A stretch of DNA of 63,691 nt, filler included, from Globobulimina sp. (Eukaryota), in assembly GCA_003354225.1 (NCBI GenBank). It is 12 parts of 12 records of this genome, joined end to end, with 100 filler letters (N's around TTAATTAATTAA, not from the genome) between each part and the next. Parts side by side here need not be neighbours in the genome. Positions count along the whole stretch, not along the records: positions 26,618 to 31,835 come from PIVH01000667.1; 11 more parts are not named here. One strand, 5' to 3'. The notes beneath the pieces are model-generated. The model had not been told where the DNA came from and searched no databases. It saw nothing but the letters and a program-made list of their open reading frames with translations. Positions 26,518-57,963 of the stretch are shown here, one piece after another (position 1 is the first letter of the stretch; each line of letters begins with the position of its first letter). Made by a program: the position numbers and the translations under genes.

Positions 26518-26617
26518 NNNNNNNNNNNNNNNNNNNNNNNNNNNNNNNNNNNNNNNNNNNNTTAATTAATTAANNNNNNNNNNNNNNNNNNNNNNNNNNN
26601 NNNNNNNNNNNNNNNNN
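26518..26617. other. Artificial contig-join spacer
   Basis: N44-TTAATTAATTAA-N44. Confidence 0.98.
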
Positions 26618-29600
26618 ACTTTATCGCTTCAACCATATTTTTAACCTGATCCACCTCCGAAATGCCTAACGATGTCGTCTGATAAATTGTAATCTCTTCC
26701 TTATAATGCGACGGATTTACAACATTTCTTTTCTTTTTTTTGATGGTCTCATCCGCCGATATCGATATCGCAATGTCGTCATTCGAGTCACTCGCACTCA
26801 TATCATCAATGCGCGTCCCATGCTTCATCAACGGCGTAGTTTGGGAGTTTTTAATCTTTGCCAATTTCGGCAATGTCTGCGATGGATTTTTATTAGTTTT
26901 GGTGCTGGGATTGGTCGTGGAGTTCCTCCGTTGCCTCACCTCTTTAACGCTGGGTAGCTGACTGGCGTAGGCCATAAACATTTGTTGTGCCGAATCTACG
27001 TCGTGTTGATAGGCGGTCAAGTTACGAATTTCTAAAATATCGTTGAACTTTTCATGACAAATTAAATTCGGCAATTTCACGGTCACATAGACTCGCATGG
27101 AAGTGCCGAAATACTGCGGGTTGGAGCTGATATATCCCAATTCATCGTCGTATACGAAGCCTATTTCACTGTATAACGTGGAAAAATTCATTTTCTTGAT
27201 GCGATATTCTTGTTTGGTTAGTCGCAACCCCTTTTTTTCTTTTTTTCCCTGTTTCTTGACTTTCGTCACTACCTCACTGAAGGTGAAGGAATTCGAGGTT
27301 GGGCTATCGGGCGTTTCCGACACTAACATTTGTTCATTGTTCATATTGGTGGGAGACTCAATGGATATGTTGCTGTTTATAGCTACATTTGCATTCGCAT
27401 TCGAGTTGAATTGCAATTCGCGAGATAATATATCCTGTTGTTTGGCGAATAAATTGTCTAAAAATATCTGCTGCCTTTGTTTGATTGAACTTTCTAACTT
27501 CTCCTCACAGTCAAATAAGCGCTTGAAGGCTTGCAAGATATTCCCGTCATTTTGCACAGAAATCAAATGCAAATGTTCCAAATAATTGCACCATATATAG
27601 AGGTTTTTATTGCTGTTTATGAATATGCCGCGGGATTGAGGCCAATCTCTGGCGTAACCGGCCATGATTAAGCCGGGTGCGTCTGGTTTGGGAAATAATT
27701 TATCGGTCTCGATCAATAGCGGCAGTTTGGATGCGTTTATTTTATGGTACGGCCGGTAGCGACCTTTCAAGGCGCCTTCATTGCATTGACTTAATGGTAG
27801 TGGCAGTGCATAAACACAACGTTTCTATCATTTGTACGTTATCTGCACATAAATTATATACAAATCATAGAAACGTTTCGCACATTAACTATTACCTTAA
27901 CACAGAAGACAGCATCTTCTCTAAATTGATGCGCTCGCTCCGCGAGATGACATTACTGAACCTAAAGCCATGCAAATTGCGCGACAATGTGATGCGGCAC
28001 GAACTGACATAGTCGTTGTCCCATAATTGCAACCTCGCCATCATGAATGAGGAATTCATCGACGACTCTTTCAACCTCTGTCTTTTATGCGATTTCCGCC
28101 GCTTATCCTCTCGTTTCCGTCGTTTCCGTTCATGTTTCTCTTTCTCGCGTAACATATCCTTTTCTTCCCCGTCAGTCCCTCCCTCTTCCTCTTGTTTGCG
28201 CTCATCCGCCGACACACTCTCTGCGATCATATTTATTTCCGTTTCTTCAGAGATGCCGATAATATCCACACTAACGCCGATATTGTGTGTGCCGGACGTG
28301 TTTTTCCTGCGTTTGCTCTTCTTTCGCTTCTCTCGCAATGAGGCACCGGCGGAGTTGGTGGCTAATGACAATCCGCGACTTCTGCGTTTAGATTTGGTTC
28401 GGTATCCATAGGGATTGGGCGATTTGCTTCTTTTACTCATCACATTCATACTCATACTCATATTCACGCCGGTATTCATAGTGAGTAATAGCCGCCAATC
28501 TGTATTTTTTTTATGCGGCCGGTCTTTTGGGTTCCATTCGTCGTGCAATACACTCAATAATTCGTCGCAGATATCTTGGAATACTTCGTAAGTCTGAAGG
28601 TGTACAGGAATTAGTTTCAACATTATATATTATAGAAACAACACATAATTAACCTTAAAATCAGCCAATCTGAAACCAATAGGATCAGGTAAATAAAAAC
28701 AACCACATTCAATGGCTCGATCAATGCTATAATCATTGACTATATTTGCTTCATCTCGGTAGATATTATACAACTCAAACGATAAAAATTCAGACACCAA
28801 CGTCTCATTCCGTAAGTCGTCCAATTTTGGGTAATCTGCCTTTGTCGCATACTTTTCATACACATTCCTTATCGAACCATTACGTTTCTTCCGCTTGGTA
28901 GTCACTACTTTTTTCAGTCTCGCCTTGAAATTCCCTTTGATGAACTCCATACTTATCTGCTTTATATGCACCGGCGCACTCAACTGAGCTTTGGGCGATG
29001 TGTCCCCACCAAACGGACGGTATTTTTTAATGCTGTTTTTCTGCGATGGTGACGCCGCGGGCGAGTCTGGCATAAATGGCGAATATAACGGCGACAACGA
29101 CGGTGAATTGGAAGTTAAATTTTTAGCGAATTTGAACTTGTTTTCAGTTGCATTCACATTCAATGTCTCTTGTTTTGTGTCGGGGAAATTATTCGTTTCT
29201 GACGGGATCGATTGGTTTATGTTTAAATTTGAAACTGGAGTTAGATAATTATACAAATCCGAAATGAAAACGTTTTTGAAATACATGTAAATATAGGAAA
29301 CCTGCAGGCGATTCGTCGATTTTTTTATCATTTTCTTCTTTGATATCGGTTAAAATGGCTGGTTTGTTTTGGACGCGTTTTTGTGTGTTTTTAACTTTAA
29401 ATTTTTTACTTTTCCTTCGTTTGGTGCCTAGTTTGCTATTTTTGTGTCTTTGGTCATTTTGTTGATGCACAATGGATGAGTTTGGATCGATTAATAATAT
29501 GTCTTCGTATTTACTTCTTCGTCGATCCAAACCTGTAAACACTTGGTCTGCGCCAAAATATTTTCTTGACTTTGGATTGGAAAACGATTCCTTGGATGAA

Positions 29601-30157
29601 AAGTCTTTTGTTTCTTCTTCTTTTTCTTGTTTTGTTTCTTCCTTTTCTTCCTTTGCTATTTTATCTATTTTTATATTCATTTGTTTTGCTGCTTTTTCCT
29701 TTTCTTCATCTTGTTTTTCATCCTCTTTTTCATCGATATTTGGTTGTTTTGGTTTGATTGAGTTTTTTTGAGTTTTTTTGAGTTTATTGTTGCTTTTATT
29801 TACTTTTTTTTGTTTTTTGTTTGCTTTTTTTTTGCTTTGTTGTGGTTGATTTTTATATTTTCGATGAATTTTTCTATGCTTACCGCCATATTTAAAGACT
29901 CGCGTCTTTTGTTCTGCAGTTTTTTTATCCATGATGGCGTTAATAATTTGTCTCCGTATAAATAAGCCTTTGTTGCGTGGACAGCGAAAGTACCTCTTAC
30001 CATGGATCAAGCCATCATGCCGTGTTTTATGTGGTGTTCTTATTTCAATGCCATACCATTCCCCCAAACCAAATCCTGTTTTACCTTTGAATCGTACTAT
30101 TCCCTCACGATCAGATGTCAAGTATAACATATCTCCAATTGCTACGCGTTTGTTCAT
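26618..30157 (-). CDS. CAP-Gly domain fused to a divergent ATP:guanido phosphotransferase (phosphagen kinase) fold; 4 exons, 3'-truncated
   Basis: CAP-Gly GIVRFKGKTGFGLGEWYGIE...HDGLIHGKRYFRCPRNKGLFIR. Kinase blocks DYPKL, VSSCRITLSRNLHGF, ARDWPQSRGIF, LGYI..P..FGT.MRV and SLGISEVDQV. Three short GT-AG introns are consistent with joining the four ORFs. Confidence 0.85.
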
Positions 30158-30251
30158 CGCGTTTATTATTTATTTATTTATTTGTAAGAACGATGTATTG
30201 CAACACAATATCAGCTAAACTTCAACGTTTTCAGTAGTTTTCATCAAACTG

Positions 30252-31331
30252 TCAGAGTTTATGTTGATTTTGTAAATTAATGTTTAACAATGATTCACAA
30301 AATTTGTCTATTATTTCATAGTTTATTGGTTTTGGACATGCTCCTTTACGTTGAATGCATAACAATGCAGTTGCTGTTGCATATAATAAACAAAATTTCC
30401 ATTCTTGTGTGTTTAATTGCTTGCGACTCATAACATATTGTGCCAAAAAGCCAGCTGCAAATGCATCGCCAGCGCCAGTTGTGTCAATTATATTGACATT
30501 TTTAATATTGCTGTTATACATATACAGTATATTGCCATTATTCTCTCTTAACAAACACCCTTTGGATCCCATTTTCATTACAATCACCAGCTGCTTATTA
30601 CAACTTATTTGAATCAACTTATTCATTGCATCCAGTTTGCTCATTTTCACTCCAATCAATTCCAATAATTCCGTATAATTTATAAATAAAACAGAAACAA
30701 TACAACATAACTTCATGAAAATCAGACGTTTGGCTTTATTTAATTTAAATTGACTCATTTGTAAATCTAATGATATTTTATATTTATATCCATTGTCAAT
30801 TAAACAATTAATAAATTCCATCGAATGTAAACCAAAACAATTATAATATCCACCAATATGAATATGATGATATTTGTTCACTTTCTTCATTAATAATATC
30901 GATGAAACTAAGTTATTATTTAAATATTTTAAGTTAATTCTATTGGTAATAAAGGTTCTTCCGTGTTTGCCCGATAATATAATACACGAATTTGCTGATT
31001 TTGATTGTTTATCATTGACAATAAAATTACATTTCTCGTTTTTAATAAGATTCAGCAACACTTTTGATAGCGTATCTTTTCCAATAACACTCAATAAATC
31101 AACCGTAATATTCTGTAAAAACTCACATATACAATTTGTCGTTAATTATAAAAATAAATATACCTTAGATTCACTCAATTGTCTGGCTGTATTTGCTGCA
31201 CAACCACCTGGCAATAATTCAATATTATTAACGATGCAGTCTTCGTCCCACGATGGTAAATTACCGACACCATTCGCTTGGATATCGATAAACAGATCTC
31301 CAATGACAAGCACTCGCCTTGAACATGCCAT
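30252..31331 (-). CDS. PfkB/ribokinase-family carbohydrate kinase (2 exons)
   Basis: VLVIGDLFID, PGGCAANTA, KMGSKG and DTTGAGDAFAAG. Intron near 31163..31113. Confidence 0.9.
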
Positions 31332-31425
31332 GGGACAAAATTAAAGCCAAAAAAACTCCAAAACTTTTTTCCACATTTTTTTTCCTTTTCTTCATCCTTC
31401 CACACAAAACAAAACAACCAAAACA

Positions 31426-31835
31426 ATGGGACAAACCATGCCAATCGCAAATGTTTTTGGCGAGAAAAGGACTGTAAAACAAATAATTCGCGAACAAAAA
31501 CGCATAAATAATCGCTCAATACGTGAATTAGAACGCGAGTTAAATAAAATTAAAAGGGACGAAAAAAAGAGTAAAATTGAAATGAAGCGGTTAGCCAAAC
31601 AGGGACAATATGCAGCAGTCAAACAAATGGCAAAAGATATTGTTCGAATGCGAGGCACACAGTCAAATTTTATTAAATTAAAATGCGAATTATCATCGAT
31701 GTCTCGTCAAATGGATACCATGCAGGCAAATAAACAGTTGATGGATGCCATGAAAAACACATCAAACATAATGCCCGCACTAAATAAGCAAATGAATTTG
31801 CCCGAATTGCAGAAAATTATGCAAAAATATGGCCA
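31426..31835 (+). CDS. VPS2: ESCRT-III subunit VPS2/CHMP2, 3'-truncated
   Basis: IRELERE, AKQGQ.AAVKQMAKDIVRMR and LNKQMNLPELQKIMQ. Confidence 0.9.
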
Positions 31836-32143: not shown

Positions 32144-33097
32144 TTAACCACCAAAACAGCCTCCATATCCAAAAACGAGATGAACAGTTGATTCAATCCC
32201 AATATTATAATCCTTAACAGTTCTATCTACATCCATAACTTTGCCTACATAAACTAAACGTTTCTGTGACATCCATGGAATTCCTTCTTTGTCAAACAAT
32301 TTCAATTTCACACTTCCTATTTTCTCTGTTTCACAAACTCTGAGAACCACAGTTTTCCCAACTCTGAGAACCACAAATATTTTGAAATTGTTATCTTCTG
32401 ACAAACTGCGGGATTTCCTATACATTTCATTCTTTTTTTGCTGCATATATTGAATGTAATCGTTACACCAAACCATTGACTCATTGAATTCTCCAAAATA
32501 TGCAATCACAATATCTTTCAATATACGTCCGAGTGTAGCACCAAATAAACAAATTAACGATGCATCCACACTCTCATAACATTGTTTTAATTTGTTTACA
32601 CTGAATGTGCGAAGCAAAACTAAATCACCTTTGTGTATTCCAGTACCTCCCGCATACCGCCCATTGCATTGTATTGCGTTTTTGAGAAACACTTTATGCG
32701 CAGTTTTGTGTTGAACAGCAGCACTTACATTCACTACATTTTTTTCTGAAACAGGATGCTGTAATAACTCAATTATTCCACTGCAACATTTTGAGAGAGT
32801 GATTGCCGGCGACCATTGATTTCGGAATATATCCAATTTGATAACACCACATTCGCTCACGTTTGGATGATATATTTTTGTTATCATGCGAATTTTTGGA
32901 GGTCTAAATGGATAATCTGCAGGAATTTCTATTTTTAGTTCATATCTTCCATTGGCATATGGTGTTTCTGCAGGTCCCATGACATGGCCTTTCCATTGAA
33001 ATAAGTTGTCACAATTGATAGGCTCTAGGGAATACGAGGCTGACTGTTGTTTGTTGATTTTTTTTAACTCGTCTGTCAATCGTTTGAGAGCAGACAT
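32144..33097 (-). CDS. Ubc4/5-like E2 fold (catalytic Cys replaced by Lys) + linker + C-terminal ubiquitin-like domain
   Basis: MSALKRL, GPAETPY, PADYPFRPPK and TKIYHPNVSECGVIKLDIFRNQWSPA. Ubl: FKIFV..GKT..IGSVKLKLFDKEGIP..RLVYVGK..DRTVKDYNIGIESTVHLV..GG. Confidence 0.9.
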   Translation of the reverse strand: MSALKRLTDELKKINKQQSASYSLEPINCDNLFQWKGHVMGPAETPYANGRYELKIEIPADYPFRPPKIRMITKIYHPNVSECGVIKLDIFRNQWSPAITLSKCCSGIIELLQHPVSEKNVVNVSAAVQHKTAHKVFLKNAIQCNGRYAGGTGIHKGDLVLLRTFSVNKLKQCYESVDASLICLFGATLGRILKDIVIAYFGEFNESMVWCNDYIQYMQQKKNEMYRKSRSLSEDNNFKIFVVLRVGKTVVLRVCETEKIGSVKLKLFDKEGIPWMSQKRLVYVGKVMDVDRTVKDYNIGIESTVHLVFGYGGCFGG

Positions 33098-33147
33098 GGT
33101 AAATGTTTAGAAAACAGTTTTCCACTAAACATTGAATAATCATAATC

Positions 33148-48767: not shown

Positions 48768-51700
48768 TTAATCCGAAATGATCGGATATAAATTCATTAG
48801 ATCTACTTGGTATAGGTATTGAAATCTTTTTGTTTCTTTTGTGTATCGTAGAATGTTTTTCCAGATATTTACTTGAGTCTCTGTGTCTAGCTCCTCGTCA
48901 ATGTCTGGAGGCCGGCGGATTGTATATGGGTAGAGTATCTCGTTGAGTGTAAATCTAATCACATTACGAAATCCAATCCAAAGAGGAAGGCAGAGGAAGG
49001 CATTTAATTCGATATGGCCTGATATGAAGCGATTTAGCATCGCCGCTTCGTCTTTATTGAGGAAACTGATTATTTTATTAAGTTTATTATGTAATTTGGG
49101 ATTCGCTTTATTCATTTTGTAGCTGTCACGGATTGGAGTTGTATTTCGATTAAGCCATGATTTATTCCATTGGAATCTTATTTGTTTATGTAATTGGGTA
49201 ATGGTGGTATTGTATGAGATTTGATTGAAGAGCGATTGGTCATATTTTGTATGTTTTGCTGCAAAGTTGGCCAATCGATCAACTTCGTCATTAAATATAT
49301 TATTATTATGCGATTTTATTTTTATAAAAGATATAAATATATTCGGTTTGTTCTGTTTTATTTGCATTAATTTTATATATATATTTTCTATTAATATTTT
49401 AGTTTCATTATATTTTGGATAATTTTGGCCATTGATGAATTGGAGGAGTGGAAGGTTATCAATATAGATTTTATAATGGATATGTGAGTTATTTGAGGCA
49501 TTCAGGATGTAATTTAGTATCATATGGACAGCTTCAATCTCAGCTGTGGTGATTGTTACTGGGATTTTGAAATAGAAGGCTTGTTTAAATGCCTTTGGAT
49601 GGGATGGTTGTGATGGGATATAAATAGCAGCTCCTCCTTTTCCTGGATTTGGGTCACATGATCCATCTGTAAACGCTAAGGTGATATCAGCATTATTGAT
49701 CATTGATGGGTTTGCCGGATATATATTGACATCAAAGTTTGCAGGCATTAATTTTAAGTTATATGCTGGCGACGAGGTTACCTGCAATTTATTCATTGTA
49801 TTAAAGTCTTGCGAGAGGGCTTTGATGGTATTATTTTCCAGACAATATTTTGTGGCAATTATTAATGGATTTTTATTTAGATTTGAGAATTTATTTGAAA
49901 TTGTTTTGCTTGATTTTCTGTATTGGTGGGATTGGATGGTTTGCTTATATTTATTTAGGGCAATATACGTTTTATTTAGGGGATGGTAGTTATCGTTATA
50001 ATAAACTCTGGCAAGTTGCCGCATTGTCAAATAATGGGCTCTATATTTAATGGGTTCAATTTTTAGGAGGAATTGGAGGTTATCCATTGGCGAATCCAAT
50101 CTGCAGGGAATCGCTAAGCGGAGGAACTTATTTTGGAGGATTTTTAATAGATTTTTGGAGTCATACGGGAAGTAATGGGATAATCCATACTCTATTCTGG
50201 AGCGAGCGAGTGATTTATAGAGAATTGCTATGGAGAGCGGTGACAGTTTTATACCGGATTTCATTGTGAAGAAAAGTCGCCAATAACTGCTCATAGTTTT
50301 GGTCTTTATTTTGGCAAAATGTGCATGGAAATTTAAGCGTTCGTCAAACCATAAACCAAGATATCGGGCAGATTTTTGGTATTGCACTGGATTTTGAAGT
50401 ATTGTATATTTACTTATTTGGGATATTTTATTGGTATTTGGATCAGTTTTATTTGTATATTTAGGATGGAATTTGAGAGGATTGCTGTGGGAGAAGTTCA
50501 TGGAGAGGCACTTGGATGGATTTATCATTAATTGCCATTTAATACACCAATCTCCGAAATTATTCAATTCTTTTTGGAGGAATTTATAGCGGATTGGATC
50601 TTTGCTTCCAGGGCTTGTCCAAAAAGCAGTATCATCTGCAAAACAAGCGAAATGAACAAAATTTGGGAAATTCAATTTAAAATCATTGGTAAAAATTATA
50701 TATAGGATGGGAGATAACGCAGATCCTTGCGGGACACCAATTGGTTGGGCTACCCAATTGGACTCTGCTTTTTTAGCAATAACTTTGGTGTATCTTGATT
50801 GTATAAATGAAGCAAGTACATTTAAAATATTTCCTTTTATGTTATTTTTAATTTATATATCAATCCATTATGCCACACACTATCATAGTCTTTGGAGAAA
50901 TCTGTAAATACAGCGTCAGTGTCACTGACCATATCAAAAGATGTTTGTATATCAGTTATAAAAGTTGTTAACACATCGCAGCAGCGGTTAATCTGAAAGC
51001 CACATTGGTAGTTATTAAATATCTTGTTTGCAACGCAAAAGTGTTGGAGTCTGTTTGCTAAGATTTTTTCAAAAACTCTACCAAGGCAAGAAGATATCGC
51101 AAGGGGTCTGTAGTTTATAGGGTTACTGTGGTCTTTGTTTGGCTTTGGAATTGGTAGTAAATGAGAGAAGTTCCAGTAGCTGGGGAATATTCCTTTGGTC
51201 ATACATTTATTAAACAGAGGAAGTAAGCAGTCAATAAGCGGCTCACCGCCATACTTTATCATTTGGTTATGGATTCTATCTGGTCCATACGCTTTATGTG
51301 TGTCAAGGTTTCTTATCACTGAACGAATTTCGTATTCTAAAATTGGATCATTCAATATTTTGTATTCATTATTCGGTATAGGAATTTCTGTATTGATTTG
51401 TGAAGGAGTCTGTATTTTTGTACAATTTTATCTTCAGATATTCATATAATATGATTATCATTTTTATCATTTATTGGTGAGTTTTTATGTTTGTTTAGGA
51501 ATTTGGAGACAAAATCATTTATATATTTATGCCAATTATTATATTTATCACTTATTTTAGGTTTAGGGGGTCTGGTCATTGCCTCTTGCAATGCTTTTGC
51601 TTGTTGGTATGGATCAATTATATTTGAATTATTTTTATAGTTTAATGGAGGGATATTATTTGTATTGATTCCATTTGATTTGTTATTTGATATAGTTCGC

Positions 51701-53184: not shown

Positions 53185-56100
53185 TTAATTGTGCAAAAAC
53201 ACGCTTTTTTTGACATCACCTCCATAATGAAATTGACCATTATAATTTTTACACGATGCCATTAATTTTAATGTTAAATCTTCTTTTATTTTAATTTCAA
53301 TTTCGTCTCCGAAAACCCATTCAGTTTTAAATTTACTTCCTTTAAATAATTTTTTTAAATGATCACCATCAATCTCTATAATTTTATGCATTGATATTTT
53401 ATCACATTCCCCCATTCTTTCTAACAATTTATCGCGTTTATTATAAAATCTTTCAATATGCTTCTTTCTCAAACAAATAATGTCTGTATTTGACAATAAT
53501 ACTTTTGATGCCACATCTAATGTAAACAAGAATGCTTGTTTTAATTTGTATAACTCAGTATTCTCAATGTCAAATGACGAAATTGCCATTGATTGTTTCT
53601 TAAATACACTGTTTAATTGTTTATGAAATAACACTTTTTTAATAAAAATATTTGAATCAATTGACATTTGCTTAATATAAATTGGTTTATTTTTTCCATT
53701 CAAAATAAATTTTATAGATTGTTTATCAGTGAATTGTTGTATCGAGAAGCAAATATTTATTGATTCCGCTTTAAATATATTTGGTAAATACTGGATGCAC
53801 AATAATTTAATTTCAAATGGAATATAATTCACTGAAATATCGTTATTTTTTTCAATTTCATTTCGAAAATAGCCACAACTCAAATACTGCAACATATCAA
53901 ATGGAAATAAATTAAACGTATCACTTTCTATTAAGTTATCATTATCAAAATTTACCTTTTTATCATTGGATATCGTTAATGTATTATTATATTTTGCCAT
54001 ATTCGACAAACATAATTTATTATATTTTTCTATATTTATTTGTTTGGCAATATTTAAATCTTTTAATGTACATATTTCGACATCGTTGACGTTAAAATAT
54101 TTTATTCCAATTGACATATAAACATGAAATATGGTCAGATTTTTTATTTGCTCCAAATCAAAGCGATATCTCCATAATAAACCCGAATTTGTTTCAAATG
54201 ATATTTGAGCATAGTGATATAATTCCGGTATAAAACAATTAATTGAAAGCAGAATATTTTTCAAATATACCGGAATGTTTTTGCATTCTAAATCAATATA
54301 AAACATATTAAATGTGTGTTTGTAAAATTTAACCTCAACTTGCATTTCTTCAATATCATCAACAAAAGGATCGAATATTGGTATTATTTTACATTTTACT
54401 GTTTCCCCATTAACAGGTTGTCCATCAAGTAATTGTTTTAACTTATTCTCGCCTTTCGATGTAAACTCAGTTTCATGCGAATATCTTGTTTGTCCGTCAA
54501 TTTCTCTCTTTCTATAAAATTTATTCATCAATTCGTTATAATATATTTTATAATTATTTGATATTTGTTTAATATCATAATTATTATTTGGATTTAAATT
54601 AATTATTGCACCATTTTTATCTCTGCTTTTAATATTTTTTAATTGCACAAATATTTCTATTTCCACTTGTTTTAATCCGTTTAATTTGGCAGAATCAAAG
54701 AAATAATCAGTTACGTTCGCATTGCCTTTGATACGTTCAATACAATTATGATACTGTTCAATTTGCGGGAAAAATAAAAATATTTCCAAATCGAAATCGA
54801 GATTAATATAAAACGGAATGTTTTTAACAAAAATACACAATCGAACTTTATCATTATCTTCGCCGTTCTGAATGCCAAAATAAATAATAATTTCATCGCA
54901 TTCATCTTTGATATCACCTTTAATTTTTGTATTTAAATGCAATGAGTGATTATCAAATAATGCAATATTTCCTTTCCAAAATGATTCCAATAAACTGTCT
55001 TTTAATATTAATTCATGTTTGTGCCTGGTTTCGTCATTTTGCGCCATATTTTTTATTTTTTCCCGTTGAGATTCCAATTGCTTTTTTTGTAAAATTACAT
55101 CGTTGATAGTTTTTAATTCGAGACCATTTTTTCCAAAAACCTTTGTTACCTTAAACATGAATTCTCCATTAATTGCTGCTCGAAATGAAGCATTTTTATT
55201 CATCAAAGAACAATCAAATATATTTGATAATATATATCCAATCGCAATTCGTGTGTCATTCGTAACTTTCTCATAAATCAATGTTTGTGAGTTGAAAATA
55301 TGTAATTCAAATTCTATGTTTTTAACGTAATCCGGCAGTGATTTTATCATAATTCTAATTTCAAATAATTTATTTTTTTGCAATTCGTAGGTTGGATAAA
55401 ATATTAATTTATAATTTGTAATGTCAGATAATTCAGATTCATTTGCAATTTTCGATTCAAACTCTTGACCATAAATCATTTTATTTTGCCAAAATGACAT
55501 TGCTTTTTCGTTTTCAATTCGAAACGTTCTCCAATTTGTGCGAATATCATTTGGATAATCATTTTTTAATTGTTTCAGTTGTTTATAATATCGTTCTTCA
55601 TGTATTATTTCTGCAGCTTTATAATCTTCATTTGTTTCTATAGCATTACCATTATAATCCTTCATCTTTTTTATTTTTATCCCATATTCAAATGTAAGCT
55701 CAATATCTTGTAAATTCGCATTGCTGTCCAATTTGAAAATATTGTCGAAATCCCATTTTTGCCCATATCGAACTTGTATGGTTGCTGATGAACATTTAAA
55801 AAAACCTATTCGCGGAATAAATAATATTAAATCAAAATTAATTTCTTTTATACACGACGGTTTGGGGAACGTATGCAGTGTAAATGTAGTTTTTTTACTT
55901 TTTTTATCAAATGCAACGCGCGAATACCATGCAGTTACAATATCATCTAATTTGCCATTATTGTTCCAAACACACTCAAAATCATCACTTAACACAGATT
56001 CTGCATCTCTGAGTATTTTTATTTCATTCTTTTTGATTTCCTGTTGACAGATAAATATATTTTGTTTGATTGTTTCCCGCAACGCATCATATAATTTCTT

Positions 56101-57832
56101 ATAAAAATACTTTCCATTTTCCAGACAATTATTTGATTTCCATTCTAATATTTTCTTCTGATATTTATTGACGTTATTTGCAAAAATATACAATTTATTT
56201 AAAAATAAATCATTTGTTTCTTTTTCTTCATTGGCGTTTGTTTTCGTTGACAATAAAAGTTGAAATTTATCATACAAATGCTGCGCAATTCGCTCTTCAA
56301 CATTGATATTTTTATAATCATGTTTCAATTTTACTGCACATTCGTCACAAAAATAATGGCCATTGGACCAGAATTCACATAGTTTCCGATTGACGCACAC
56401 ATGTAATATCTGATAGGTTGCTATTTGTTTAAAACAATGATCGCAATGCAATAATTTTTTGGTGGTCAACGTGCATGGCGTCAATACATGGCCACAATAA
56501 CAAACACATAAATGCGGCTCCATCCGTTTATAAATAGCACGTTTTCGTTTGTTAATAAATGTTTTATCGACCTCAGTTAAAAGATGATTCCATAGTGATA
56601 TTAATGAGTTGTTACCGCAGTATCTGTTCGTTAACGAAAATAAATTTGCTGAATCAAAATCGTTATTTGATTCCATTTTCGACAGCGTATTATCCATTGT
56701 ATTAAATTGATGGGTGACAAAAATCATTATATTTGGATTGTACTCAACAGATATTCGATCAATCATTGTTTGAATCATGTGTATCATCGGAATTGTATCA
56801 TTTTCTTCAGGCGCTGGAATGTGCGAACAAGCTGTCATTAATGACATTAATTCTTTGCAGTTGTAACATACAATAAAAGTGCTGTCTTGCTTATGATATT
56901 TTGAATAATAATTCATTTCACATTCATACATTATTGGTGCTGTAATGACGGTATAATCTTTGCCACAGCCACAACAATTAAATGATGTATCGCCATAACT
57001 GTCACACAGCAACATTTCAATCATTTGATTACCGCAAATGCAATATATTTCATCGCTAACTTTGTCAGTCATTTTCTCGGAGATTACTTGTCGAAGTTGT
57101 TTGAATTTGGCAGCATATGCCCAATATTTATCAAATTGTTTCGAATTCATTGATTTTACTATTTATATATGCAATGTATGTGAAATAAATTAGAGAAATA
57201 TACAGAACAAAACAACAAAAAACTAAACATCGGTGAATAAAATATATTTGAAATGTAACGATTTTTTTAAGTTTAGTTAATTGTTCGGTGTTGTCAGGAT
57301 TTGTTTGATGTATTCTATTTGATAACATATTATATCGTTGTTTGAAAAATAATATACTTTCAACCAAGCCATTTATTCGTTTTTTCAATTCATTCGTGTG
57401 ATCATCAGAAAGTAACAATTTTTTGTCAGCTTGAGATGTAAGTTGCGATATTATTCGTACGTTTTGTAATAAAAATGCGTTGTTTGTATCGATGTCGTTG
57501 GCTGAATGACGAGTTATTTTGTTGTATGTTATTGTATTTGAAATTCTTTGGTATAATAATTCGCCATGTTTAGGTTTATTGCTTTGTTTTGATTCTTGAT
57601 TAAATATTATTATTGCACATTTACCGCAAAACCCATAACCGGATGGATGATGCTTGACATTCTGTAATGAATCGCATGCATACATCACCTCATTCTTATT
57701 GTAACTGTTGGTGCAAACAGTACAAGTCACTGATATTGATGATTGATATCGAATGCAAAGTTCTGAAGCTGGTATGCAAATTAATAATTTGCCACATACA
57801 CAATCAAACTCCATAACTTGTTTGGTTTGCAT
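53185..57832 (-). CDS. Large protein with three Cys/His-rich (zinc-finger-like) repeats and about six ~170-aa beta-rich repeats; probably 2 exons
   Basis: ORFs 57131..57832 and 53185..57150. Repeats follow C.CG..L/M...C..C...Y/H.C...Y.FC..C. Confidence 0.65.
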
Positions 57833-57963
57833 TGTGTTGAATAAATGCTATCAGTAAAGATTGAAAAAAAACCTCAACCTCCTTGGAGTTTTGCGCAAAT
57901 AAATGCTATCAGAAAACTTTACGTTACCATCGACCATTTCAGGAAGCAAAAAGTCACTTTGAA

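Follow-up and report, generated by a model that had tools for sequence, protein, structure and literature searches.

The stretch of DNA analysed here (the window, 63,691 nucleotides of Globobulimina sp. from assembly GCA_003354225.1) carries on its minus strand a four-exon gene that joins an N-terminal CAP-Gly domain to a phosphagen-kinase fold. As judged from sequence comparison and structural modelling, its product is a conserved, spliced foraminiferal pseudoenzyme, with an intact fold, lost catalytic residues, purifying selection and expression. We put at about even the chances that this protein acts as a microtubule-associated scaffold, structural or regulatory instead of enzymatic. The gene is real and well supported, both as a gene and as a pseudoenzyme, and it is its microtubule function that we infer. 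A first-pass annotation had recognized a single protein made of a CAP-Gly domain and a pseudo-phosphagen kinase, and this stands; the roles it suggested, a nucleotide or phosphagen sensor or a scaffold recruiting active kinase, are weakened by the present analysis.

Gene structure and domains

The window is made of separate contigs of about 5.2 kb each, joined by 100-base N spacers, and the gene lies on contig C667 (window 26618-31835) of an assembly (G000) of 70 Mb in 48,370 contigs. The pieces of the gene are carried in four minus-strand frames, the first with the Pfam match to CAP_GLY and the last with that to ATP-gua_Ptrans; all coordinates of the gene given below refer to this strand. Exon 1 (29302..30157) comprises the ATG, the CAP-Gly domain, a Lys/Glu-rich linker and a conserved linker block (block A), and its start agrees with that of the ortholog fragment P0157. 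Exon 2 (28654..29234), which is also supported by ortholog comparison, contains a Ser/Pro-rich linker, a second block (block B) and the start of the kinase N-terminal domain; exon 3 (27896..28593) contains the end of that domain, insert 1 and the start of the large domain; and exon 4 (26618..27789), truncated by the end of the contig, contains the remaining large domain with inserts 2 and 3. The three introns are of the GT-AG type and measure 67 nt (intron 1, 29235..29301), 60 nt (intron 2, 28594..28653) and 106 nt (intron 3, 27790..27895).

Enumeration of GT-AG sites alone was abandoned as a basis for the splice model, as it left hundreds of open models; joints in sequencing runs delimit all four exons and fixed one model, with a spliced frame open for 1,102 codons. 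These joints come from assembled run contigs, four of seven public runs having been aligned to contig C667. Introns 1 and 2 appear as spliced joints in runs X5 and X1, and intron 3 in X5, X1 and X3, so that all three introns of the first-pass annotation were recovered. X5, X1 and X3 were judged RNA-like from their spliced joints alone, no run being recorded as RNA, and X4 is unspliced and behaves as DNA. It must be taken into account that X4 and X5 derive from the same sample, possibly the one from which the assembly was made, and X1 and X3 from other studies. One X1 contig spans 29302-30212 and the intron 1 joint has equal depth in this run, which links the CAP-Gly exon to exon 2. The possibility that the CAP-Gly and kinase frames are separate transcripts, considered in the first-pass annotation, is thus contradicted by the spliced joints and by a Nonionella stella protein that holds both in a single frame.

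The CAP-Gly domain spans residues 7-69 (29951..30139). It matches PF01302 with an E value of 7e-17 (61.5 bits against a cut-off of 26.5), is supported by alignments to Protein Data Bank (PDB) structures and has a confidently modelled fold, with a predicted local distance difference test score (pLDDT) of 90-98 over residues 1-80, in agreement with the N-terminal CAP-Gly first proposed. It is followed by a family-specific extension, residues 70-95 with a helix at 78-85 (29873..29950), which is conserved in P0157, P0158/P0161 and P0159. In the model of exon 1 the rest of the chain is disordered, including block A (residues 185-225, 29483..29605), which contains an RRRS motif, has a pLDDT of about 53, is identical to Nonionella at 36/41 positions and is also present in P0157. 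Block B (residues 355-416, 28843..29028) is basic and directly N-terminal of the kinase fold; its identity is 47/62 to P0161 from Nonionella, 42/62 to P0001 and 42/62 to P0004, and most of it has a pLDDT below 50 in the P0001 model. The Lys/Glu-rich linker described earlier does exist in exon 1, but with these two conserved blocks the linker is not all low-complexity. The protein is basic, with an isoelectric point of 9.8.

The phosphagen-kinase fold also holds as first described. On exon 4, PF00217 scores 99.2 bits against a cut-off of 22.4 (E 2.6e-28), and a complete two-domain fold was modelled for an ortholog. The N-terminal domain (residues 417-517, 28480..28842) spans intron 2, is supported by structural alignment and is identical to P0161 at 85/101 positions. 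The Pfam model for this helical domain, PF02807, stays below its cut-off (18 against 25.7 bits, E 0.0042 in P0161); the domain is present in the ortholog model, which aligns to chain residues 6-381 of creatine kinase. The guanidino-specificity loop, in what the available part of PMC11492440 describes as the specificity region of phosphagen kinases, is four residues shorter than in creatine kinase proper and has the length found in the arginine-kinase-like enzymes of the same genome.

The fold is interrupted in three places, as had been noticed. Insert 1 (residues 518-657, 28060..28479), between both kinase domains, is basic, Ser-rich and predicted disordered, with 36/140 identities to P0161 and a pLDDT below 50 in the ortholog model. 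Insert 2 (residues 816-898, 27231..27479) was placed by ortholog alignment and model; it lengthens a long helix and then becomes disordered, and is short in the Reticulomyxa protein P0035. Insert 3 (residues 1001-1068, 26721..26924), placed by alignments and by comparison with contig C331, lies at the flexible lid loop and is missing an additional 246 nt that C331 has. The AlphaFold2 model of the ortholog P0001, built from 54 sequences, has 324 residues with a pLDDT of at least 90, the inserts staying below 50. Its best Foldseek matches are creatine, lombricine and glycocyamine kinases, and with VIA-align it superposes on creatine kinases and a dimeric arginine kinase with Z 42-43 and a root-mean-square deviation of about 2 Å over 354-370 residues, against Z 37-38 for other arginine kinases. 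A search of the ESM Atlas gave no usable match. The model indicates that the fold is compatible with the sequence and says nothing on the state of the pocket.

The 3' end of the gene lies on another contig. The boundary first given, 26618, is correct as the end of C667 and is not the end of the gene. The last 108 bases (26618..26725), encoding the last strand and the start of the C-terminal helix, are identical at 108/108 positions to G000:C331:5888-5995, which runs on to a stop codon. C331 carries a 246-nt in-frame segment (G000:C331:5996-6241) missing from the window between 26726 and 26725, which encodes blocks also found in P0001, P0161 and a second Globobulimina copy on contig C8376, and run X1 shows a loose end of the C331 type at 26726/26725. 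With this segment the protein would have about 1,217 residues, the join being based on a 2-base overlap and homology. Since the segment begins with GTAAG and ends with AG, the window version resembles a splice product. The window contig retains its three ordinary introns; an exitron-type splice product, a misassembly or a deletion allele may equally explain the absence. Two other interpretations were discarded. The gene does not continue across the unstranded N spacer at 26518..26617, which, from the N runs and contig places, separates unrelated contigs outside the gene: the kinase-C-terminus-like frame beyond it belongs to another, distinct contig, and it is C331 that carries the true end. 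Evolutionary loss of a DEDLG block in the window copy was dropped after C331 was found to hold the missing segment.

Active site, selection and history

Active-site positions are numbered here as in creatine kinase (CK), anchored on the human and rabbit enzymes; we take R320 and V325 to be the proper numbers of these two residues, and assume the role given to R320. The NEEDH motif is replaced by NYLEH (27573..27587), so that NEED, with the catalytic Glu (CK E232, arginine kinase (AK) E225), reads NYLE in 7/7 family sequences covering the site, and R236, two residues on, is a His (27569). CPSNLGT is replaced by NPQYFGT (27102..27122), the reactive Cys (CK C283, AK C271) being Asn in four of five family sequences and Ser in the fifth, from Reticulomyxa. 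Both motifs had been read correctly in the first-pass annotation, 1-3 nt from these positions, and both losses are real; the degeneration was underestimated, as it also affects three of the five phosphate-binding arginines and the two histidines of the adenine pocket. The full set of replacements is R132T, H191D, E231Y, E232L, D233E, R236H, C283N, S285Q, H296T, R320Y and D335T, and R130, W228, N230 and R292 are retained, leaving two of the arginines R130, R132, R236, R292 and R320. In the adenine pocket W228 is kept and S128 is found in 3/6 sequences; the alignment column of H191 may be shifted by one residue, with no His in either case. According to the accessible portions of PMC12467219 and PMC12387690, in arginine kinase the arginines and histidines contact the nucleotide, and the Glu and Cys contact the guanidine. 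Because residues of both kinds are replaced, phosphagen-kinase catalysis by the window protein is very unlikely and its ATP binding is doubtful.

The new pocket is nearly invariant. All 11 replacements are common to the window protein, P0161 and P0001, and in the three most distant relatives 17/18 covered pocket sites are identical, against a background of 61% (p 0.002, the sites not being independent). Two roles may be considered for a rebuilt pocket. The first is that of a metabolite sensor on microtubules, in which the pocket would bind nucleotide, phosphate, pyrophosphate or another small ligand and thereby switch microtubule binding. The near-invariant replacements, the retention of R130, W228, N230 and R292 and of the Val-Asp pair in the lid loop, and the position of insert 3 at that loop, from which it could relay movement, are in its favor, as are the large phosphate and ATP stores of foraminifera reported in the available part of PMC11864969. 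Nevertheless, we hold this reading to be rather unlikely, given the loss of three of the five arginines that bind phosphate and of the two adenine histidines, and the bulky Tyr and Leu at NEED positions; the replacement of R132, R236, R320, H191, H296 and D335 in particular weakens the nucleotide/phosphagen sensor first envisaged, and ATP sensing is less likely than a scaffold role. The second is that of a neofunctionalised enzyme, performing different chemistry with the conserved polar residues T132, D191, E233, H236, N283 and Q285. The long stem of the family followed by strong constraint, with invariant polar replacements, would fit such a change; even so there is no recognisable catalytic set, and the lid-loop insert, of 70-340 residues, differs between orthologs, so that we regard a new enzyme as improbable.

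A search with the CAP-Gly region found four proteins among 16 candidates; the cluster to which one of the four belongs holds P0161, a Nonionella stella protein of 1,262 residues with CAP_GLY (E 1e-16), a weak PF02807 and PF00217 (E 9e-29) in a single chain and one frame. It is identical to the window protein at 76/95 positions of the CAP-Gly region and at 137/158, 58/61 and 24/34 along the core, identity falling to 26-34% in the inserts. Further members, all fragments, are P0001, P0004, P0005, P0006, P0034, P0037, P0157, P0159, the Reticulomyxa filosa protein RFI_16490 (P0035) and the copy on C8376, whose 5' part was not found in the assembly. P0157 and P0159 have the same CAP-Gly and end before the kinase part, and P0004 starts without a CAP-Gly, which may be a wrong gene call. 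The nearest named relatives, from Nonionella stella and Reticulomyxa filosa, are both from Foraminifera. When longer proteins were searched with exon 4 and exon 2, the full-length Nonionella protein did not come up, its cluster being represented by a 327-residue fragment; more fused orthologs may therefore be hidden. A CAP-Gly profile built for this purpose had no match in 153 phosphagen-kinase proteins (a set made before P0157-P0161 were added), and scans of metagenome contigs gave 230 and 253 pattern matches, none of them confirmed.

The gene is under strong purifying selection, as judged from its substitutions. Between the window and C8376 copies, over 126 codons, the synonymous rate dS is 1.2 and the replacement rate dN is 0.03 (dN/dS 0.025). 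Among the 40 difference rows listed of 148, run X1 shows 25 synonymous against 6 replacement changes and X5 shows 19 against 4, where chance would give 80% replacements, and the X1 indels are net multiples of three within linkers or inserts. A slow but active phosphagen kinase, or a decaying pseudogene, has next to no chance of being the right description. The fold is intact, and arginine kinases with single mutations in NEED or at the Cys retain traces of activity, but in this family eleven pocket positions changed together, and decay is excluded by the open frame, the in-frame indels and the dN/dS value.

In a FastTree phylogeny of 107 rows, nine family rows form one group with support 100 and a stem of 1.26. 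In a mixture-model tree of 34 rows, a chosen subset of intact domains from which near-duplicates and one long row were left out, four family rows come together with 100/100 support, on a stem that measures 2.3 against 0.06-0.10 for the end branches; they fall outside the creatine-kinase group (97/93) and outside the arginine-kinase group (97/96), to which the intact enzymes of the genome belong. A common origin of the family with the intact kinases C1032 and C17381, imposed on the tree, was not rejected in the approximately unbiased test (p-AU 0.068). Across 115 of the 153 proteins, 211 phosphagen-kinase domains were fully aligned, and 124 of them retain at most three of six core residues, in a set biased by the query and aligned automatically. 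As far as these alignments go, degenerate phosphagen-kinase domains are common in protists, which tempers the surprise; special to this family are the fixed new pocket, the CAP-Gly fusion and the conservation of the latter.

Other phosphagen-kinase copies were observed. G000:C16500 (L012:27-1342) is a separate degenerate phosphagen kinase with NHENH and SPKHFGT, 23% identical to the window family; its dimer residues resemble those of creatine kinase, and it has a basic insert of its own, about 110 residues long. C555 and C18079 (L003, L004) encode otherwise intact domains with NEGDH replacing NEEDH, C555 having two domains with a short spacer, and C1926 (L016) and C47110 (L015) hold additional, highly eroded phosphagen-kinase-like frames. 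Elsewhere, P0007 and P0009 (from Mallomonas and an unnamed source) combine a PH domain with four degenerate phosphagen-kinase domains, P0024 has an RIIa-like domain beside its kinase domains, and P0019 has ankyrin and Dpy-30 domains beside them.

Dimer face, tubulin tails and proposed function

Seven interface residues of human creatine kinase (E19, D55, D62, R148, K156, R209 and D210) are named in the available text of PMC4754747. Among family sequences covering them, R148 is retained in 6/6, R209, D210 and W211 in 8/8 and K156 in 5/7, and the E19 position is Asp. On the microtubule side, the GKNDG motif, which according to the accessible part of PMC9062740 borders the groove of CAP-Gly that binds EEY/F, reads TRHDG; F29, W34 and F66 align with the aromatic residues of CLIP-170 and CLIPR-59, and the motif of CLIPR-59 (1whh), GKHDG, has a His at the same position. 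From 64 tubulin matches in the genome, 30 loci were read, 18 of them with a complete tail, and in 6/18 this tail closes with acidic residues followed by F or Y. EB1 has a single match, with a terminal Tyr and no acidic run. Among the loci L065-L094, F or Y is the last residue of three conventional-looking alpha-tubulins, three divergent beta-like tubulins end in DF and six divergent alpha-like ones in Asp; these classes are presumptive, assigned from motifs as we know them, and some loci may come from other organisms. In the divergent tubulin pair, the aromatic tail end seems to have shifted to the beta chain.

Taking these features together, a mechanism may be proposed. Sequence, tree and dN/dS indicate that an ancestral phosphagen kinase, probably creatine-kinase-like and of the dimeric type, went through a burst of change, in which catalysis and most contacts to the nucleotide were lost, and was then frozen by purifying selection, the fold persisting, as modelled, after the loss of catalysis. 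The N-terminal CAP-Gly could bind acidic, aromatic-ended tubulin tails, so that binding or anchoring to microtubules through this domain is plausible from its sequence, and the basic disordered arms might raise affinity for the microtubule lattice. The core would probably dimerise through the retained creatine-kinase interface, and such a dimer would display two CAP-Gly arms and could cross-link or bundle reticulopodial microtubules. More speculatively, the rebuilt pocket and blocks A-D would most likely bind protein partners, and phosphorylation at conserved RRxS and SP sites may serve as a switch. In its full form, this proposal is a tentative one and less likely than not: a creatine-kinase dimer would have been remade to cross-link microtubules with its two arms, or to regulate the bundles of the reticulopodia, perhaps by recognising the aromatic tails of divergent beta-tubulins, and the old active site would be a new conserved ligand pocket.

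Several observations weigh against a microtubule scaffold built in this way. The CAP-Gly motif departs from GKNDG. At the interface D62 is Phe in 4/4 sequences and D55 is variable, and the window copy has Ile for R152. Conservation of the pocket above the rest of the fold would fit a packed scaffold and a new site for a ligand equally well. The complete fusion was found in only one ortholog, Reticulomyxa having yielded only a kinase-fold fragment, and in the four runs no single contig spans the whole transcript.

The CAP-Gly could also serve a partner other than microtubules, such as a zinc knuckle, another aromatic-ended tail or actin, and the protein would then be a scaffold at some other site in the cell. 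Zinc knuckles and F-actin are among the ligands of CAP-Gly grooves (PMC9062740, in the part available). At least 150 CAP-Gly matches occur in the genome (150 of 240 candidates scored), some of them in long arrays as on contig C996, with varied motifs and GKNDG itself in 6/42 domains. We see little chance of this, given that the aromatic positions align with those of tubulin-tail binders, that CLIPR-59 shares the motif His, that the arms are basic and that suitable tubulin tails exist in the genome. The abundance of CAP-Gly matches does temper the novelty of the fusion; of 29 CAP-Gly frames scanned, two hold another Pfam domain and none a phosphagen-kinase domain.

The retained dimer face may alternatively suggest an adaptor that heterodimerises with an active phosphagen kinase and brings it onto microtubule tracks, as the first-pass annotation had proposed. 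Intact kinases are encoded in the genome, and since the assembly is fragmentary an intact partner of the creatine-kinase type could be missing from it. However, R148, R152, R209 and D210 are all missing from the four intact domains compared, which fall among the arginine kinases in the tree, and the sole other copy seen with a creatine-kinase-type face, C16500, is also degenerate, all of which makes recruitment through this face quite improbable. For the scaffold reading preferred here, the conserved and expressed protein is a concrete and testable candidate component of reticulopodial microtubule networks. Reticulopodia are built upon bundled microtubules, as stated in the available part of PMC2111848, and the generation and upkeep of such networks are described as unresolved in that of PMC13371060. 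If the two-armed cross-linker were true, no pseudo-phosphagen kinase would have been characterised before it, and it would give a molecular handle on how microtubules are organised in reticulopodia.

Genomic neighbours and comparison with known systems

Upstream of the gene, the window carries at 30252-31340 (minus strand) a PfkB-family kinase gene with a 51-nt intron, which ends 94 bases before the ATG and has little or no coverage in the spliced runs, and a Snf7-family gene starts divergently at about 31430. On other contigs there are two glutamine synthetase copies head to head on one contig (21300-24040), a ubiquitin-conjugating (E2) domain fused to a C-terminal ubiquitin-like domain (32147-33106, minus strand), a retrotransposon-like reverse transcriptase and RNase H in two overlapping frames (48771-51427, minus strand), and frames of 1,325 and 238 residues that contain Cys-rich repeats and match no Pfam family at E 1e-4 (53188-57847, minus strand).

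Foraminiferal homologues of 'creatine kinase' have been reported by orthology assignment (PMC11864969, PMC13561418), with no mention of CAP-Gly in the parts of these papers that were searched. In the literature searched, mostly without subscription journals, no published description was found of a CAP-Gly/phosphagen-kinase protein or of any pseudo-phosphagen kinase, nor of CAP-Gly in foraminifera or Reticulomyxa or of a catalytically inactive flagellar phosphagen kinase. Among the matches listed, the word 'pseudoenzyme' is absent from phosphagen papers, and papers combining CAP-Gly and creatine kinase look unrelated by title and start of abstract. With CAP-Gly in 0/153 screened proteins, the fusion does not look to be already widespread and described. 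The window protein extends the pseudoenzyme concept to the phosphagen-kinase family, of which no earlier case was found in that literature. Labels of creatine-phosphate metabolism given by orthology, as in the portion available of PMC11864969, need an active-site check, because the genome copies found with creatine-kinase-like features are degenerate and the intact ones are arginine-kinase-like.

The window protein resembles creatine and other dimeric phosphagen kinases (PDB 3b6r, 1i0e, 8ci4, 3ju5/3ju6, 3jpz, 3l2d) over the whole two-domain fold (Z 40-43) and flagellar-type creatine-kinase domains with 30-33% identity over the core, and its family has the ARDWP and R148 dimer residues and Val325 of creatine kinases. 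It differs from them in lacking NEED, Cys283 and the adenine histidines, in keeping two of five arginines, in a specificity loop four residues shorter, in its three inserts and CAP-Gly, and in its place outside their tree group (97/93). The intact kinases C1032, C555, C17381 and C18079 share its family, genome and short specificity loop, but keep the catalytic residues, belong to the arginine-kinase group (97/96) and are 24-26% identical to it. Multi-domain protist kinases, such as EP01041_P005882 of Mallomonas, which has a PH domain, and EP00927_P081839 of Polykrikos, also combine this fold with pseudo-active sites, in some cases together with a targeting domain; unlike the window protein they have tandem domains without the three inserts and with variable replacements, CAP-Gly being absent from all 153 proteins screened. 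As in CLIP-170, CLIP-115, CLIPR-59, p150Glued, KIF13B and TBCB/TBCE, a CAP-Gly (best PDB match 1whh, E 2e-14) is followed by basic, Ser-rich disordered sequence; in contrast to CLIP-170-type proteins, it is single and carries TRHDG, and the presumed dimer unit would be a dead enzyme fold instead of a coiled coil. The orthologs RFI_16490 (ETO20730.1) of Reticulomyxa filosa, a 181-residue fragment with a short insert 2, and EP01083_P038789 of Nonionella stella, entered in databases as hypothetical or unnamed, share the same replacements, and Nonionella has the full architecture.

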